Origin: an uncultured archaeon
GTDB lineage: Archaea > Nanohalarchaeota > Nanosalinia > Nanosalinales > Nanosalinaceae
Length of the DNA: 64,000 nucleotides
Direction of reading: 5' to 3'
Assembly: GCA_964421955.1 (NCBI GenBank)
Contig: CAYQYU010000004.1
Coordinates: 1 to 64,000 of the forward strand
Shown: positions 5,751 through 12,501 of the stretch, piece by piece
Layout: every line of letters starts with the position of its first letter
Numbering within the stretch: the first letter of the stretch is position 1
The notes under the pieces: model-generated
The model's input: the letters and a program-made list of their open reading frames with translations, nothing else
Databases searched by the model: none
What the model was told of the DNA's origin: nothing
Translations under genes and position numbers: made by a program

Positions 5751-6770
5751 ATGGATCACAAACAGAGGAAACAGCTCGTCCTCAGGAACACTGAAGAAGT
5801 CGTGACAGAGGAAGAGCTAGAAGAAGTTCTCGAAAAGGATAACCCGAGGTGCTACGTCGGTTACGAGACCTCGGGTCCCGTGCATCTCGGCCACTGGATC
5901 TCGGTCAGGAAGATGCTTGACCTCCAGAAAGCGGGCTTCCAGCCCGTGATCCTCTGGGCTGATCTCCACACATACCTCAACAAGAAGGGTGAGGAGGGCT
6001 GGATCGAGGCCATGACCGACTACTGGCAGGCAACATTCGAGGCCCTCGGGCTCGAGGCCGAATACGTCCACGGCCGCTCATTTGAGGAAAAGACAGAGTA
6101 CTTCCACGACATCCTTGAGATGGCGAAAGAGACCACGATTAATAGAGGCACCCGCTCGATGTCGGAGGTCGCCCGGGACAAGGAGAACCCTTACATCTCC
6201 CAGATAATCTATCCATTGATGCAGGCGCTGGACATAGAGTACCTTGATCTTGACCTCGCGGTCGCAGGAATAGACCAGCGGAAGATCCACATGCTTGCCA
6301 GGGAAAAGCTGCCGAAGCTCGGTTACAGGAAGCCCACGTGCCTCCACTGGCCTATGCTCGCCTCGCTTTCAGGCACCGGAGACAAGATGTCCTCAAGTAA
6401 GAAAGAGACAATGTTTCCGCTACATGCGGATCCCTCCCACATAAGAGAGGTCATCACGGAGGGCTACTGTCCCTCAGGAGAGACAGAGGACAACCCCGTG
6501 CTTGAGATCGCGAAGTACTTCATTTTCGGCGCAGATCGCAACCTGGAGATTGAGAGACCTGAAGAATACGGCGGAGATGTAGAGTACGATAACTACGAGG
6601 AGCTGGAGAAGGACTTTGAATCCGGGGAGCTCCACCCACAGGATCTGAAGAACGCAGTCGCAGAGGACGTGGTCGAACGGTTCAAACCTGTCCGGGAACG
6701 TTTCAAGGAGGAGCCTGAACTGCTCGAACCGCTTGAAGAAATCGGCCATGAGACTCCAGATTACATCTAG
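5751..6770 (+). CDS. tyrS: Tyrosine-tRNA ligase (archaeal type)
   Basis: YVGYETSGPVHLGH, YPLMQALD, GIDQRKIH, KMSSS. Confidence 0.97.
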   Translation: MDHKQRKQLVLRNTEEVVTEEELEEVLEKDNPRCYVGYETSGPVHLGHWISVRKMLDLQKAGFQPVILWADLHTYLNKKGEEGWIEAMTDYWQATFEALGLEAEYVHGRSFEEKTEYFHDILEMAKETTINRGTRSMSEVARDKENPYISQIIYPLMQALDIEYLDLDLAVAGIDQRKIHMLAREKLPKLGYRKPTCLHWPMLASLSGTGDKMSSSKKETMFPLHADPSHIREVITEGYCPSGETEDNPVLEIAKYFIFGADRNLEIERPEEYGGDVEYDNYEELEKDFESGELHPQDLKNAVAEDVVERFKPVRERFKEEPELLEPLEEIGHETPDYI

Positions 6771-6907
6771 CCTGGTCGGAACAAATTTAACTTTTCCAGA
6801 GACATTTCTCCCATGGTCACAATCAAGGGTGGACGTTTTTCCGCTCGGCAAACTTGAATCGCTTCCAAAACATTTCCTAGTTAAAGCTTTCTTCCGCTGT
6901 GGATACT

Positions 6908-8173
6908 ATGCTTGACATAGAGCTCTTCCGCGAGAATCCCGAGAAGATCAAGGAATCAGAGAAGCGCAGGGACAAGGATGTATCCCGCGTTGACAGAGTC
7001 GTTGAACTCGACCAGGAGTGGCGAGAAAAGCTACAGAAACTCGAAGACCTCAGGGCCGAGAGGAACACCGTGGGCGACGAGATCGCCGAGCTGAAGCAGG
7101 AGGGCAAGGATGCGGAGGAAAAGATCGAGAAGATGTCGAAAGTCAAGCAGCGCATCGAAGAGCTTGAGGAAGAGGTCGAAGAACTCAAAGAAGAGCGGGA
7201 CGAAGTCAGGTACAGGATAGGAAATATCGTCCACGAGTCCGTTCCAAAGGGCGAAGACGAGGACGACAACGTCGAGTTAAGGACCTGGGAGCCTGAAGAA
7301 GGGAAGAGAGAGGAAGCAGATCTCAGCGCCGACTTGCTCAAGGATAGCAACCTGGTGGAGACAGAGAAAGCGACGGAAGTTGCCGGCGACCGCGCCTATT
7401 ATCTCAAGCGCGACCTCGTGAGAATGAACTGGGCTCTCCAGCAGTTCGCGATGGATCTTCTCATAGAGCAGGATTACATACCCCACCAGACGCCTTACTA
7501 CCTAGAACAGGAGGCGATGGAGGCGGCTGCGGAGCTTGAGGACTTCCACGAGCAGCTCTACAAGCTAGACCGAGAGGACAAGTACCTTATCGCGACCTCG
7601 GAGCAAACACTAGCTGCGCTACAGTTTGATGAAATTATTGAGCCACAGGAGCTGCCTCTAAAGTACGCAGGTTTCTCCACAAATTTTAGGCGAGAGGCCG
7701 GAAAGCACGGCACACAGACCCGGGGTATCTGGCGTGTCCACCAGTTCGAGAAGATAGAGCAGTTCGTTTTCTGTGATCCGGAGAACTCCTGGAAGCTACA
7801 CGAAGAGCTTCTTGATAATGCGGAGGAGGTGCTCCAGGAGCTAGAGCTGCCATACCGGGTCGTAAACGTCTGTACGGGCGACCTGGGCGACACTCCGGCG
7901 AAAAAGTACGATATCGAGGTCTGGCGACCTCCTCTAGAAGAGTACGGCGAGATTGTCTCCTGTAGTAACTGCACAGATTACCAGGCAAGAAAGCTCGGCA
8001 CGCGTATAAGGCGGTCGGGCGGCAACCAGACAGCTCACACCTTGAACGCTACGGCACTGGCGACGTCCCGGGCCATCTCTGCGATCGTAGAAAACCACCA
8101 GAGCGACCGCGGAATAGAGATTCCAGAGGCCCTGCAGCCCTACATGGGAGGCCAGGAGTACATAGAGATCTAG
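6908..8173 (+). CDS. serS: Serine-tRNA ligase
   Basis: N-terminal coiled coil, LIATSEQ, FRREAG, RVHQFEKIEQF, EIVSCSNCTDYQAR. Confidence 0.97.
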   Translation: MLDIELFRENPEKIKESEKRRDKDVSRVDRVVELDQEWREKLQKLEDLRAERNTVGDEIAELKQEGKDAEEKIEKMSKVKQRIEELEEEVEELKEERDEVRYRIGNIVHESVPKGEDEDDNVELRTWEPEEGKREEADLSADLLKDSNLVETEKATEVAGDRAYYLKRDLVRMNWALQQFAMDLLIEQDYIPHQTPYYLEQEAMEAAAELEDFHEQLYKLDREDKYLIATSEQTLAALQFDEIIEPQELPLKYAGFSTNFRREAGKHGTQTRGIWRVHQFEKIEQFVFCDPENSWKLHEELLDNAEEVLQELELPYRVVNVCTGDLGDTPAKKYDIEVWRPPLEEYGEIVSCSNCTDYQARKLGTRIRRSGGNQTAHTLNATALATSRAISAIVENHQSDRGIEIPEALQPYMGGQEYIEI

Positions 8174-8526: not shown

Positions 8527-10560
8527 ATGGAAACCACTGTGATGGTCGGCGAGAAGCCCAACGTTGCGTCAAGGATCGCGCAGGCGCTCGGCGATTACTC
8601 GATTCGCGAAAACAGAGGAGTCAAGAATTACGTCATAGAGACGGACGACCGGGAAATAATCATAGCGCCCGCGGTAGGACACATCTTCAACCTCGAGCAG
8701 TCCAGCGAAGGATGGTCCTACCCTGTATTCAAGGTTGAATGGAAGCCGATATTCGAGACAGAGGACGGCGCGAACTACGTCAAGAAATACTACAACAACC
8801 TGAAAGACCAGATTGAAAAGGCGGATAGCTACATCAACGCATGCGACTTCGACCTCGAAGGATCTGTAATCGGGTACAACGTCATAAAAAACCTTGCAAA
8901 CCCTGATGAAGACCGGATACAGAGGATGAAGTTTTCAACACTGACTTCTTCCGACCTCCAGGAGGCGTTTGACTCCCTCGAGAGCTTTGACGAAGGCATG
9001 ACCCAGGCCGGACTGACCCGGCACATCATGGACTTCTACTACGGTATAAACGTCTCAAGGGCGCTAATGCAGGCGGTGAGGGAGAACGACCGCTACAAGA
9101 CTCTTTCCACCGGGCGAGTCCAGGGCCCGACGCTGAAGGTGCTTGCGGAACGGGAGCGGGAGATACAGGCTTTCGAGCCCGACCCTTACTGGGAGATCAT
9201 GCTGAAGCACACGGAGTTCGAGGCCCAGTGGGAAGATGAAGAGGACCGCATATGGGATGAGGAGACCGCGGAAGAGATATTCTCGGAAGTTAAAGACGCC
9301 AGGATAGCAGAAGTAACCAATATCAAGATAAACAACTACAAGCACAATCCTCCTGTACCTTTCAACCTCACGGGACTCCAGAGCGAGGCCTCTTCACACT
9401 TCAACATATCGCCGAAGAGAACGCAGCAGCTCGCCCAGAACCTGTACGAAAACGGGCTGATCTCATATCCCCGAACGGAGTCGCAGAAACTGCCCACGAA
9501 AATCGGTTACAAAAATCTCCTGAACAAGCTGAAGAACCAGGACGAGTTTGAAGAAAAAGCGGAGAAGGTGCTCGACAAGGACGAGATCTACCCGAGACAG
9601 GGCAAGAAGAAAGATGATGCTCACCCCGCTATATATCCAACAGGGGAAGCGCCCTCCGGGCTTTCAAAACAGGAGCGCCAGCTCTACGACCTCATCGTGA
9701 AGCGTTTCTTCGCGGTATTTGGAGACGCTGCAAAGAGAAGAACGCTAACATTCACGCTGGAAGTCGAAGACCACAATTTCCTCGCGCAGTCAAAGATTAC
9801 TGTCGAAAGGAACTGGTTCGACCTCTACGACCCGTACGTCCGCGTGGAGGAAGCAGAACTGCCCGAGATGGAGGAGGGGCAGGTTCTCGACATCGAGGAG
9901 TTCGAGCTGCTTGAAAAAGAGACTCAACCACCGCGGCGTTACTCGCAGTCCGCGATCGTCAACGAGCTGGAGAAGAGGAACCTGGGGACCAAGGCAACGC
10001 GGGCACAGACGGTCGACCGCCTGTATTCGAGAAACTACATCGAGAACCAGCCCATCGAGGTAACTGATCTCGGGCTCACGATAGTGAATACTCTTGAGGA
10101 TCACTGCCCAGAACTATTATCGGAAGAGCTAACAAGGGAGTTCGAGGAGAAGATGGAGTCGATAAGGAGCGAGGACAAGACCTCAGGAGAGGTCCTGGAA
10201 GAGGCAGAGAAACAGCTGAAAGACGTCCTGTCGAGGTTTAAGGAGGACGAGAAGGAAATTGGGAAAGAACTCGTCGACACCATCGACCAGGAGCGTGAGC
10301 GCAGAAGACAGCTGGGCGCTTGCGACCAGTGCGATGACGGAACATTGAGAATAATAAAGACCAAGAAGGGTCGGTTCGTCGGCTGCTCAAACTACCCTGA
10401 CTGCGAGAACACCTATCCGCTCCCGGGCGAGGGCAAGATCGAGTCCCTCGACGAACTATGTGAGGAATGCAACACGCCAAGAATAAAGGTAATAAGAAAG
10501 GGCAGGAAGCCCTACTCGATGTGCATCGACCCCGACTGTCCCACGAAGGACGACTGGTAG
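8527..10560 (+). CDS. topA: DNA topoisomerase IA with C-terminal zinc ribbons
   Basis: EKP, D.D.EG, STGRVQ.PTL, ISYPRTES (catalytic Tyr), AHPAIYPT, GTKATRA. Confidence 0.97.
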   Translation: METTVMVGEKPNVASRIAQALGDYSIRENRGVKNYVIETDDREIIIAPAVGHIFNLEQSSEGWSYPVFKVEWKPIFETEDGANYVKKYYNNLKDQIEKADSYINACDFDLEGSVIGYNVIKNLANPDEDRIQRMKFSTLTSSDLQEAFDSLESFDEGMTQAGLTRHIMDFYYGINVSRALMQAVRENDRYKTLSTGRVQGPTLKVLAEREREIQAFEPDPYWEIMLKHTEFEAQWEDEEDRIWDEETAEEIFSEVKDARIAEVTNIKINNYKHNPPVPFNLTGLQSEASSHFNISPKRTQQLAQNLYENGLISYPRTESQKLPTKIGYKNLLNKLKNQDEFEEKAEKVLDKDEIYPRQGKKKDDAHPAIYPTGEAPSGLSKQERQLYDLIVKRFFAVFGDAAKRRTLTFTLEVEDHNFLAQSKITVERNWFDLYDPYVRVEEAELPEMEEGQVLDIEEFELLEKETQPPRRYSQSAIVNELEKRNLGTKATRAQTVDRLYSRNYIENQPIEVTDLGLTIVNTLEDHCPELLSEELTREFEEKMESIRSEDKTSGEVLEEAEKQLKDVLSRFKEDEKEIGKELVDTIDQERERRRQLGACDQCDDGTLRIIKTKKGRFVGCSNYPDCENTYPLPGEGKIESLDELCEECNTPRIKVIRKGRKPYSMCIDPDCPTKDDW

Positions 10561-10842
10561 CTAGAGCGACGGATTGTCCATGCCAGTCCAGAAAGGCGGG
10601 GTATGGTCAACGTCGGCAAGCTTTTCACTTCCATATTCTTCTTCGAAGTATCCTCCGTCAGGGACTGCTCGCCTGCCGAACAGGTCGCCGAGCGCAGCGA
10701 CTCCTTCAGGACTGTACTCGGGCTCCCTGTCGTAGCTATTCTCCCAGTCCTGGCTGCTCTGTTCCTGGCTTTTTTGATCACTGTTCAGCGCGGCAAAAGG
10801 ATCGGGGCAGAGCATCCCGCCGGGATTCTCGACATCTCTCAT
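10561..10842 (-). CDS. Acidic hypothetical protein, cassette copy 1 ORF4 (AVPDGG motif)
   Basis: 93 aa; GGAGG Shine-Dalgarno; start abuts the upstream micro-ORF stop (TAG ATG). Confidence 0.65.
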   Translation of the reverse strand: MRDVENPGGMLCPDPFAALNSDQKSQEQSSQDWENSYDREPEYSPEGVAALGDLFGRRAVPDGGYFEEEYGSEKLADVDHTPPFWTGMDNPSL

Positions 10843-10926
10843 CTACATATCGCCTCCATGGACGCTTCTCTGGGTGTTCGAAGGGTTTGAAGGGTTCGAT
10901 AGTTTTGTGGTGTTGTCTGTCGTCAT
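10843..10926 (-). CDS. 27-aa micro-ORF MTTDNTTKLSNPSNPSNTQRSVHGGDM (copy 1 ORF3)
   Basis: Translated by hand; SD-like GAGTTGA upstream; paralogue at 11488-11568. Confidence 0.5.
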   Translation of the reverse strand: MTTDNTTKLSNPSNPSNTQRSVHGGDM

Positions 10927-10971
10927 GGTGGATCAACTCGAATTGAAAACGAGAAAGACCACCGCTGTCGC

Positions 10972-11103
10972 CTAGAACAGCAGTAGCACAATAATCAGGA
11001 CAATAATCGCAGAGCCAGAACTGGCCGAAAGTTCATGGAAAACGGATCTAGCGAAAAAGTTATCAGCCAGAGCAAAAACTCTCGGACTCAATAAAACGTC
11101 CAC
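10972..11103 (-). CDS. 43-aa peptide with C-terminal hydrophobic tail (copy 1 ORF2)
   Basis: GTG start, ends AIIVLIIVLLLF; paralogue at 11620-11748. Confidence 0.4.
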   Translation of the reverse strand: MDVLLSPRVFALADNFFARSVFHELSASSGSAIIVLIIVLLLF

Positions 11104-11167
11104 CCTTGATTGGCTCCGAGTCCATAGCAGAAAATAAAGAAAATAGAATTTAAAAAGGAAAGGGGGG

Positions 11168-11488
11168 CTAAAGAGGTGCCCCGTTCTCTGTCCTGTCCTC
11201 TTTTCTGTGGGAGACGTCCTCCATCGTTTCATTCGAGCGATCGTAGCCTCCCATAGGTCCTGGAGCACGGTACTGGCCGCCATCTGTAACATATCCTTCG
11301 TCAGACAGAGGGCCTTTCGTTTCCGGACCCATAGGACTGGCCATGTAGGCTCTTCCCCCATCAGTCACCGCATCTGGATCTTCACGCTCTACCTCATCCA
11401 TAATTTCTTCTATATTTCTGTCGGTCTCTTCCATTCTACGAGCGAATCTATCTCCTATAATAGAATCATCCTCGTGAGAATTAGCCAT
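11168..11488 (-). CDS. Acidic hypothetical protein, cassette copy 2 ORF4 (two VTDGG repeats)
   Basis: 106 aa; GGAGGTGA SD; TGATG overlap with the upstream micro-ORF. Confidence 0.7.
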   Translation of the reverse strand: MANSHEDDSIIGDRFARRMEETDRNIEEIMDEVEREDPDAVTDGGRAYMASPMGPETKGPLSDEGYVTDGGQYRAPGPMGGYDRSNETMEDVSHRKEDRTENGAPL

Positions 11489-11568
11489 CACTTCTCACCT
11501 CCTTCTACAGCTTTTTCCACGGTTTTGAAGTTGCAATGCTTAGGTTGTGTGTTGTTGTGTGTTGTCAT
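11488..11568 (-). CDS. 26-aa micro-ORF MTTHNNTQPKHCNFKTVEKAVEGGEK (copy 2 ORF3)
   Basis: Translated by hand; GAGGTGA SD upstream. Confidence 0.55.
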   Translation of the reverse strand: MTTHNNTQPKHCNFKTVEKAVEGGEK

Positions 11569-11619
11569 AGAGTGTTCACCTCGAATCAATCGAGAAAGCG
11601 AGAAGAACCACTCCACCTT

Positions 11620-11748
11620 TTACAGCAGGAGCAGCAGTGCCAGTAGCAGAAGCAGAGTAACGTCTAGATGTGAATTAATCGAAACTTGAGGAACTATAAA
11701 ATCGAAGATAGCTGGAACTCTAGAAGTGAAGTTCCAGAACGCGTCCAC
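11620..11748 (-). CDS. 42-aa peptide with poly-Leu tail (copy 2 ORF2)
   Basis: GTG start, ends VTLLLLLALLLLL using several different Leu codons. Confidence 0.45.
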   Translation of the reverse strand: MDAFWNFTSRVPAIFDFIVPQVSINSHLDVTLLLLLALLLLL

Positions 11749-11811
11749 CTGAGGTTGAAAGTGCTGCGGACATACTCACTGCTTCATCACAAACGTTTAT
11801 AAAGGATCCGT

Positions 11812-12501
11812 CTAGAAGAGTCCTTTCTCATCTGGCTCCTTCAGCCCCTCGTTCACGATCTGGAAGCGCTGGCTCTTACCTTCAGGAAGTGAACGGTGCT
11901 TCTCCACCTCGATCTTCCTCAGGCTCTTGTCCTCGTAGGAAAGCTTCAGGAGGCACTTCGACCAGTAACGGGGAACGTCACGGCCCACGAGTTCCAGGCC
12001 GTCCTCGTCAAAGTTCGTGTAGACCTGGTTCGTCACAAGTACAGGGATCTCGTGTTCGCGGGCAATTTTTGAGAGGGTCGAAAGCTGCTTTGAAAGCCTC
12101 TGGTTGACCTCTGAAACGTTATCGCCGTTGGCCTGGAGGCGGTAGAGCGACACCAGAGAGTCCACCACTATGAGCTCTGGTTCCTCCTCTTCAACCAGCC
12201 CCGGGAGCGACTCTATGTCCTGCTCTTGCTCGTTGAAGGTCGTCGGCTCCATGACTGTAACGTTTTCTAGCGCCTCATCATCCGCTACCTGGACGAAACG
12301 CTCGGCGGAGAAACCTTTCTCGGTGTCTATATAGGCGACCTTCTCGCCCGATGAGGCGACTTCCGCAGCGACCTGGACGCAGACGTTGGTTTTTCCAGAT
12401 CCGGATTCGCCGAATATATTGGTTATAATCCCGCTCTCTATTCCACCATCCAGGAGCGAGTCGATCGGCTTTGAACCCGTAGAGAGACGTTCAACTTTCA
12501 C
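11812..12501 (-). CDS. radB: DNA repair protein RadB
   Basis: Short RecA-type ATPase (GESGSGKT, IVVDS, TNQV) with the RadB KHR motif. Confidence 0.93.
   Translation of the reverse strand: MKVERLSTGSKPIDSLLDGGIESGIITNIFGESGSGKTNVCVQVAAEVASSGEKVAYIDTEKGFSAERFVQVADDEALENVTVMEPTTFNEQEQDIESLPGLVEEEEPELIVVDSLVSLYRLQANGDNVSEVNQRLSKQLSTLSKIAREHEIPVLVTNQVYTNFDEDGLELVGRDVPRYWSKCLLKLSYEDKSLRKIEVEKHRSLPEGKSQRFQIVNEGLKEPDEKGLF

Follow-up and report, generated by a model that had tools for sequence, protein, structure and literature searches.

Two diverged cassettes of very short open reading frames (ORFs) lie next to each other on the minus strand of a 64,000-nucleotide (nt) stretch of DNA from an uncultured archaeon of the Nanosalinaceae, in the phylum Nanohaloarchaeota (assembly GCA_964421955.1, contig CAYQYU010000004.1, positions 1 to 64,000; this whole stretch is hereafter called the window). 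They raise the question of what a micro-ORF, a second ORF laid over it in the +1 frame, and two further small ORFs could do together. Both cassettes are located between the 3′ end of the topoisomerase I gene (8527-10560, plus strand) and radB (11812-12501, minus strand). The order of parts is the same in cassettes A and B: a TATA box, a leaderless micro-ORF containing Gly-Gly-Arg (GGR), the +1 ORF, a spacer, ORF4, and an acidic ORF5 coupled to ORF4. A preliminary description of this locus had listed ORFs, motifs and coordinates for five such elements, each of which was found in its place on the minus strand. It had proposed toxin-like membrane peptides or peptide precursors, controlled by an upstream ORF (uORF) or by a +1 frameshift, and of these options the frameshift is now the best supported. 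The reading developed below, which we consider rather probable, is that each cassette would act as a two-stage, ribosome-read gauge of one charged tRNA, in which a +1 frameshift at a scarce codon, like that of bacterial prfB, is relayed to ORF4 and then to ORF5.

Aligning the two copies, as had been suggested, brings out a common layout, with identity in islands only when the two units are compared; the sequences themselves are too diverged for blastn, which found no pairing of cassette A with cassette B at E-values up to 10. A comparison of the two ORF5 proteins reached only E = 0.045. The same order and frames, sought in related genomes, recur in other genera: ORF4 and ORF5 are separate in 10 of the 16 loci inspected, and in 3 of the 16 ORF4 is fused as the N-terminus of threonine ammonia-lyase (ilvA), a gene that was not found in the present genome. 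One of the relatives' loci (L059) is syntenic and also adjoins the topoisomerase 3′ end. The claim that layout and frames are kept while the peptides diverge is therefore borne out in relatives of other genera, and the cassette layout is far beyond chance. The two cassettes belong to a family of leaders found across the genome and the phylum, whose main targets are aminoacyl-tRNA synthetase (aaRS) genes.

Distribution of the Leader Module

The unit common to this family is a module composed of a leaderless ATG, 0-14 codons, AAG GGT GGA CGT TTT, and then one codon, here termed the specifier. The motif GGTGGACG occurs 28 times in the 922-kb genome. Four of its copies stand in the context of an ATG, a few codons and (A)AG GGT GGA CG(T/C) (T/G)TT: those in cassettes A and B, and those upstream of serS and glyS (L025, specifier GGA, contig C1:95620-95715). 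A profile search of the genome added a valS leader (L110, specifier GTA, contig C8:25090-25275) and a weaker variant before hisS (L109, CAG GGT GGG CGT TTT CAC, contig C2:19691-19900).

Among relatives, the 15-mer AAGGGTGGACGTTTT was present with at most one mismatch in 28 of the 41 genomes of a first sample, and in 47 out of 70 Nanohaloarchaeota genomes; those with the 15-mer, which are ~1 Mb in size, have 1-10 copies of it. The reversed 15-mer, used as a control on the 70 genomes, gave 0-1 matches per genome. A species-wide search with ATG plus the motif as an exact 18-mer, using one genome for each of 185,579 species, returned 20 matches, where we estimate that ~17 would be expected by chance. 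Thirteen of the 20 are in nanohaloarchaeal records, including one from Candidatus Nanosalina, of the same family as the window, and one titled Candidatus Asbonarchaeaceae, which was taken as nanohaloarchaeal; the other seven are in scattered bacteria. We take the module to be real and specific to the phylum.

The counts that follow refer to 104 instances gathered by nucleotide pattern from 27 relatives and this genome. Within the motif, GGT is used in 104/104 instances. The codon before the specifier is TTT in 98/104 and GTT in 6/104, and never TTC, the codon that makes up 78% of the genome's Phe codons; likewise CGT, the Arg codon of the motif, accounts for only 9% of the Arg codons. The synonymous sites of the motif are thus fixed against the codon usage of the genome. 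GGR, which had been noted as a peptide feature, is instead a Shine-Dalgarno-like nucleotide signal: the motif contains GGGUGG, complementary to the 16S rRNA 3′ end GAUCACCUCCA. The 16S sequence was taken from three complete relatives, in which the 3′ end reads ...GGAUCACCUCCA, as 16S was not assembled in this genome. The assembly is rated 98.8% complete, although no 16S rRNA was found in it and aragorn reported only 12 tRNAs; these genes are probably unassembled or carry introns.

Specifier Codons and Downstream Genes

In 57 of the 57 leaders that precede an aaRS gene, the specifier encodes the amino acid of that gene: Ser before serS (15 instances), Gly before glyS (11), Val before valS (11), Thr before thrS (10), Tyr before tyrS (6), Cys before cysS (2), and Phe before pheS and Trp before trpS (1 each). 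The CAC (His) specifier of the hisS variant in this genome also matches its gene. Gene identities were obtained from Pfam and NCBIfam, with six glyS, five valS and two tyrS identified by a class-level Pfam match together with N-terminal likeness; for L085 no more than 10 residues are visible, and in L086 masking sets in after 25. At three loci an Ile specifier stands before ilvA, the gene for the entry step of Ile synthesis, and a Trp specifier precedes one TrpD-like gene. The other 47 of the 104 instances stand before genes with no evident pathway link, among them 23 Trp-specifier sites. Overall, 11 amino-acid specifiers were seen, with Ile in cassette A and Leu in cassette B.

At 10 of the 23 Trp sites, a +1 ORF of at least 93 codons begins inside the motif (VDVFG...). 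Those VDVFG genes that have a family match are GNAT, inositol-monophosphatase-like and TrpD-like. Nine VDVFG loci lie behind a short frame-0 ORF ending in ..GGRFW (L036, L042, L045, L054, L061, L078, L079, L088, and L092). The VDVFG genes in the +1 frame are probably annotated with wrong starts, in that their frame-0 parts are missed or the start is placed at the GTG, and the micro-ORFs themselves fall below the cut-offs of gene callers.

The +1 Frame between Motif and Main Gene

Comparison of the leaders also indicates that the +1 frame opens at the motif and ends at the start of the main gene. Upstream of the motif, in 44 N-terminal extensions of at least four codons, the 353 codons of the +1 frame include 32 stops. 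Between the motif and the uORF0 stop (uORF0 denotes the leaderless frame-0 micro-ORF), the 57 aaRS leaders have no stop in 800 +1 codons, and from the uORF0 stop to 15 nt before the main start, none in 1,142, so that 1,942 codons in total are free of stops. Over the second of these stretches, frame 0 contains 91 stops in 1,168 codons and frame +2 contains 74 in 1,133. The stop-free +1 stretch runs across the AT-rich B recognition element (BRE) and TATA box of the main gene's own promoter.

In 53 of the 57 aaRS leaders, the first +1 stop is found between -15 and +12 nt relative to the main start, compared with 0/57 in frame 0, 5/57 in frame +2, and 13.5 expected from shuffled leaders. Typical forms of this stop/start junction are ATGA, ATGCTTGA and TAAnnnATG, and one of the four misses (L027) fits when a TTG start is used. 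In the serS, glyS, valS and hisS leaders of this genome, the +1 frame runs straight to the start codon of the synthetase. Entry into the +1 frame by re-initiation after the uORF0 stop was considered and found unlikely, as this frame is already stop-free over uORF0 (0 stops in 800 codons, vs. 10 in +2). A supposed link between the presence of a leader and a stop at codons 2-3 of serS was dropped, because serS genes that lack the leader also have TAA or TGA there.

Frame 0 and Promoters

An in-frame ATG is located 0-14 codons upstream of the motif in 101 of the 104 instances, where a rough estimate would expect one quarter by chance. Of the three exceptions, one is N-masked upstream and two lie in the +1 frame of an upstream motif copy. 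These two second copies are found 58 and 97 nt downstream of the first, exactly in its +1 frame and with the same stop, and the double motifs look like two-step frameshift cascades. They belong to L074 (G012:C22:16419-17809) and L089 (G018:C10:20393-21457), and each repeats the specifier amino acid of the first copy (Trp and His, respectively). The final ORF of L089 encodes an AbrB/MazE-like protein of 80 amino acids (aa).

Counting from the ATG, 90/104 instances have the start of an AT-rich hexamer 24-38 nt upstream, a figure slightly flattered by choosing the boxed ATG where two were possible, and AT content peaks at -35 to -25. This position is that of an archaeal TATA box for a transcript that would start at the ATG itself, and the mRNA is accordingly predicted to be leaderless. 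The aaRS main genes have their own BRE/TATA (CAAAACC followed by TTTAAATA or TATAAAA) ~25 nt before their ATG and inside the leader, as seen at L023, L040, L041, L091, L103, and L065. Each such gene thus seems to have two promoters, one for a leaderless mRNA and one for a sensor transcript. CAAAACC...TTCTAG had been a candidate pairing partner of the 5′ motif and was rejected, as it does not covary with the CGC variants. CAAAACC plus TTTAAATA also occurs ~25 nt before thrS of this genome (C11:~28340), a gene that has no leader, and it is therefore the main gene's own BRE/TATA.

Proposed Sensor Runs at the End of the +1 ORFs

The hydrophobic ends of the +1 ORFs of both cassettes vary with the specifier. 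In the last 12 +1 codons, the 10 Ile-specifier leaders contain 4-8 Ile codons, and the 7 Val-specifier leaders contain no Ile and 2-5 Val. The +1 ORF of cassette B, with its Leu specifier, has 10 Leu among its last 12 residues. The aaRS leaders have no such tail, with a mean of 2.3 Ile+Leu+Val in the last 12 +1 residues. That a codon in frame 0 predicts the composition of the +1 frame would be hard to explain unless both frames are read. The tails AIIVLIIVLLLF and TLLLLLALLLLL are best regarded as runs of Ile, Leu and Val sensor codons that follow the specifier, and not as membrane toxins.

It was this tail that had suggested hydrophobic peptides like type I toxins, or else precursors of peptides, that a uORF would control. 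Although the +1 ORFs of A and B do end in 12 hydrophobic residues, such a run is too short for a membrane span, the rest of each +1 peptide is not conserved, and the sister leaders of synthetase genes share the motif without the tail. As the composition of the tail is set by the specifier, this explanation was rejected, and we now give it almost no credence. The other element of the earlier proposal, a translational control device in which a leaderless uORF is overlapped by a +1 frame opening at GGTGGACG, has gained support from the comparisons above.

A Proposed Mechanism and Its Alternatives

Taken as sequence comparisons, these data appear to require that ribosomes read frame 0 as far as the specifier, read the +1 frame from the motif onward, and are delivered by the +1 frame to the next start. 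The frameshift itself, the direction of control (scarcity turning the gene on), the melting of a hairpin, and any function of ORF5 are steps that we infer. In the first stage, transcription from the TATA box would yield a leaderless mRNA on which a ribosome starts in frame 0 at the 5′ ATG. As the ribosome reads AAG GGU GGA CGU UUU, base pairing of GGGUGG to the 3′ end of 16S rRNA would be possible; the P site would be occupied by UUU (by GUU in cassette B) and the A site by the specifier, AUU (Ile) in A or CUG (Leu) in B. When the matching charged tRNA is plentiful, the ribosome would keep frame 0 and stop a few codons on; when it is scarce, the ribosome would pause and slip +1. In the second stage, ribosomes slowed or terminating at the Ile/Leu/Val run before the +1 stop would open a hairpin over the Shine-Dalgarno of ORF4, and ORF4 would be translated, with its ribosomes passed to the acidic ORF5 by the stop-start overlap. 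In the case of synthetase genes, less charged tRNA would lead to more shifting and more enzyme, a self-correcting loop. A wider proposal, on which we are evenly balanced, is that the leaders form a programmable frameshift regulon, in which a 15-nt cassette with an exchangeable sense codon converts tRNA scarcity into a +1 shift that turns on synthetase, biosynthesis and other genes.

Several features of the slip site bear on whether such a shift could occur. UUU keeps two base pairs after a +1 slip, and by simple count (GGUGGA, CGU, UUU) the Shine-Dalgarno element is 3-4 nt from the shift codon, as in release factor 2 (RF2). A number of observations, however, weigh against the proposed frameshift gauge. 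In the best pairing register, the distance of the element to the shift codon exceeds that in RF2 by ~4 nt and comes nearer to the spacing used for initiation. Re-pairing at UUU is perfect only if the first base of the specifier is U or C; where it is G or A, as for Gly, Val, Thr and Ile (48/104), tRNA-Phe would re-pair with a wobble mismatch, and at the six GUU sites, including cassette B, re-pairing would be poorer still. The four U's would favor a -1 slip, yet the -1 frame is not conserved as an open one. No hairpin common to the leaders was found past the specifier (mean z -0.32, vs. -0.38 inside genes), and a stem in this position occurs only in glyS leaders. The spacer hairpins barely beat shuffled sequences (A, -15 kcal/mol, z -0.9; B, -18.9 kcal/mol, z -2.1). 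In this genome the module was not found at thrS, tyrS, cysS, trpS or pheS, and in four other genomes no leader was found at serS. Targets of the Trp specifier are mixed (GNAT, inositol-monophosphatase-like, PPDK-like, or with no assigned family), and the specifier does not, therefore, always name a pathway. The ORF5 proteins of A and B match no Pfam family and are orphans. As the 104 instances come from related genomes and were gathered by pattern, the conservation figures are in part circular, and the independence of the counts is overstated; leaders from different amino-acid classes, on the other hand, cannot be aligned with each other. Finally, the motif GTG does not vary (no mismatch in the 15-mer searches of relatives falls on the T and G of GGTGG), which makes a separate initiation in the +1 frame possible.

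This last point is the basis of a reading with two starts and no frameshift, in which some ribosomes would begin in frame 0 at the 5′ ATG and others in +1 at the motif GTG, and frame-0 traffic, or stalling at the specifier, would control access to the GTG. The +1 frame opens exactly at this GTG, the long Trp-class +1 ORFs can be read as GTG-started proteins (VDVFG...), and starts that overlap and serve two frames have been described in E. coli (PMC9841429). However, in 44 instances the GTG lies at least four codons from the 5′ end, has no Shine-Dalgarno at a usable distance, and is under the ribosomes that come from the ATG. Furthermore, a ribosome stalled at the specifier would cover the GTG, such that shortage would lower expression, the opposite of the expectation for a synthetase or ilvA, and the exclusive use of UUU over UUC would be left unexplained; we consider this arrangement unlikely. 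A frame-0 pause at the specifier might also act alone, by altering RNA folding, transcription, or use of the second promoter, with the open +1 frame as a side effect. The specifier logic, the leaderless uORF, and the presence of the main gene's own BRE/TATA inside the leader would fit such classical leader-peptide control. It cannot explain why 1,942 +1 codons, through an AT-rich promoter, contain no stop when the other two frames past the uORF0 stop contain 165 in 2,301, why the +1 frame ends on the main start, or why sensor-codon runs are encoded in the +1 frame, and it is to be regarded as quite improbable.

A T-box-like RNA that binds uncharged tRNA would dispense with the ribosome, pairing the specifier with the anticodon and the UGGA of GGGUGGA with the NCCA end. 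The specifier does match the downstream gene, as in T-boxes, and the motif contains UGGN, the partner of NCCA in the account of T-boxes given in PMC7778990. Against this stand the in-frame ATG in 101/104 instances, at the transcript start, the identity of UGGA across eight amino-acid classes, and a motif-to-gene region that is unalignable between classes and in which no shared stem was found. No Rfam family reached its gathering score anywhere in the window, serS leader included; at E-values up to 10, the interval 10400-12000 gave four chance-level matches only (E > 1), and no tRNA gene was found within the window. For covariation of UGGN with tRNA discriminator bases, the 12 tRNAs from aragorn had ambiguous ends and were not usable. 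We consider a T-box-like RNA very improbable.

Relation to Known Systems

The frameshift reading has its closest parallel in prfB. According to the passages of the Atkins et al. review that bear on RF2 (PMC5009743), at a slowly read UGA the peptidyl-tRNA can leave CUU and re-pair with UUU, and a Shine-Dalgarno-like element precedes the shift codon by 3 nt. As in prfB, a short frame-0 ORF shares its sequence with a +1 frame that has no stops past the shift site, and a G-rich, Shine-Dalgarno-like element that encodes Gly as a by-product stands a few nt before the shift codon (PMC5009743, in the same passages). In both, the P-site codon can re-pair one base forward, and a slow A-site codon would report shortage of the factor that the gene supplies. 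The nanohaloarchaeal leaders differ in that the slow codon is an exchangeable sense codon (11 amino acids) and not UGA, which makes them an analogue and not a member; in that they are archaeal, on leaderless mRNAs, with a frameshift predicted from sequence and an ambiguous spacing in the 16S register; and in that translation of the +1 frame would usually yield not the enzyme itself but a disposable peptide, to which the real gene is coupled. The same review also presents frameshifting as a means of sensing, in which mRNA is unfolded in favor of a downstream ORF, and as of 2016 it considered the natural use of hungry-codon frameshifting unclear (PMC5009743). A 2021 review of archaeal recoding, in a statement that covers -1 cases, counts only one reported -1 frameshift in Archaea (PMC8211752).

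With T-boxes, the leaders share the use of one module before many aaRS and amino-acid genes, a single specifier codon, and the same regulon logic (PMC7778990). Unlike in T-boxes, the specifier would be read by a translating ribosome and not by naked RNA-tRNA pairing, the system is archaeal, and there is no Stem I, antiterminator or Rfam match. The leaders would work like a T-box but fall outside the T-box class, as they match no covariance model and would be read by ribosomes. A cis-acting control system for archaeal aaRS genes was not found described in the literature searched, nor was any description of the motif, of Nanohaloarchaeota aaRS leaders, or of sense-codon frameshift sensors for aaRS genes (full texts, without supplements).

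In E. coli, ilvL, leuL and pheM are leader-peptide attenuators. The cassettes resemble these, and ermC-type translational attenuation as outlined in part of PMC5009743, in having a run of Ile/Leu/Val codons that ends a short leader ORF before a predicted hairpin over a ribosome-binding site, here that of ORF4; in addition, threonine ammonia-lyase (ilvA) is a target in nanohaloarchaeal relatives. They differ in that the codons of the run belong to a frame that ribosomes would enter at the motif and nowhere else. In addition, a terminator was not found, and the hairpin is weakly supported. Control is probably of translation.

If the frameshift reading is correct, the leaders would be an archaeal counterpart of the bacterial T-box in which the ribosome itself measures the charging of any chosen tRNA. 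They would also be the first natural case in which hungry-codon frameshifting serves as a modular sensor, one that extends to two-step cascades and to proteins made only by shifting. Their 11 amino-acid specificities would offer a simple, sequence-defined and testable system, and may show how host-dependent nano-archaea sense amino-acid supply. A 15-nt module with a swappable sensor codon might also serve as a compact, amino-acid-specific translational switch.

Parts of the Cassettes and of the serS Leader

The first three elements of the preliminary description hold in detail for both cassettes (all coordinates on the minus strand). In cassette A, the TATA box TTTTTAAA of promoter P1 (11149-11156) ends 23 nt before the ATG of uORF0 (11063-11125; MDSEPIKGGRFIESESFCSG in frame 0), and in cassette B the box TTTATAAA (11796-11803) ends 22 nt before that of uORF0 (11720-11773; MSAALSTSGGRVLELHF). 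The shift module of A (11090-11107) is canonical, AAG GGT GGA CGT TTT followed by the specifier ATT (Ile, 11090-11092), and that of B (11735-11752) is a variant, TCA GGT GGA CGC GTT followed by CTG (Leu, 11735-11737). From the GTG within GGTGGACG, the +1 ORF of A (10972-11103) encodes 43 aa, VDVLLSPRV...AIIVLIIVLLLF, with its Ile/Val/Leu sensor run at 10975-11010, and that of B (11620-11748) encodes 42 aa, VDAFWNF...TLLLLLALLLLL, with its Leu run at 11623-11658.

After the +1 stop comes a pyrimidine tract, and then a Shine-Dalgarno within a small predicted hairpin. This corresponds to the conserved spacer noted earlier, which reads GGTGGTC...GATCCACC in A (10927-10963) and GAGTGGTTC...GAACACTC in B (11567-11616), where it begins 6 nt past the +1 stop. 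The Shine-Dalgarno of ORF4 is GAGGTGA in B (11576-11582) and a weakened GAGTTGA in A (10933-10939). An 8-bp helix matching spacer B was seen by eye in L057; the hairpin set, being three sequences, is too small for a covariation test. An alternative pairing of the hairpin with the tail run was predicted, no better than in shuffled sequences.

ORF4 has the described size and MTT opening, with 27 aa in A (10843-10926; MTTDNTTKLSNPSNPSNTQRSVHGGDM, opening MTTDNTT...) and 26 aa in B (11488-11568; MTTHNNTQPKHCNFKTVEKAVEGGEK, opening MTTHNNT...). The GG-[DE] ending, also noted as a peptide feature, is simply the Shine-Dalgarno of ORF5, GGAGG in A (10853-10857) and GGAGGTGA in B (11495-11502). ORF4 always opens with a CA-rich, G-poor segment (ATGACAACACACAAC-like, MTTHNHTT...), at 10902-10926 and 11541-11568 in the two cassettes and likewise in L101, L064, L057, L063, and L066. 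In the ilvA loci this CA-rich start forms the N-terminal extension of the enzyme. Possible roles are those of an unstructured start region or of a sensor for Thr, His or Asn.

The acidic, coupled ORF5 is likewise as described. In A (10561-10842) it encodes 93 aa with AVPDGG and no Ile, and its ATG directly follows the ORF4 stop (TAGATG); in B (11168-11488) it encodes 106 aa with two VTDGG and overlaps the ORF4 stop (TGATG), or 107 aa if begun at the GTG at 11491. ORF5 proteins contain 20-30% Asp+Glu, and those of relatives align only in patches, several with an [A/V/T]-x-D-G-G patch. A homology search with ORF5 of A found only itself, and one with ORF5 of B found itself and one relative of 140 aa (52% identity); in the protein atlas, no score was above 0.83. 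ORF5 of A, behind the Ile sensor, has 0 Ile, and the 106 residues of ORF5 of B, which follows the Leu sensor, include 2 Leu; as relatives with a Val sensor have no matching depletion, this scarcity may be chance.

Outside the cassettes, the window holds a sister leader before serS (6813-6915, plus strand), with its own TATA box (within 6780-6915, plus strand). Its uORF0 (6813-6857) encodes MVTIKGGRF-S-ARQT, with the motif at 6825-6839 and the specifier TCC, and its +1 frame is open to the TGA at 6913-6915, inside the ATGCTTGA of serS (start 6908). tyrS (5751-6770), directly upstream of this leader, does not have one of its own. The GGRV-L variant of cassette B recurs in L057, L072, L080, L095, and L099 as a second site after KGGRF-I/V in one uORF, and this second site reads KGGRV-L-Q in relatives.

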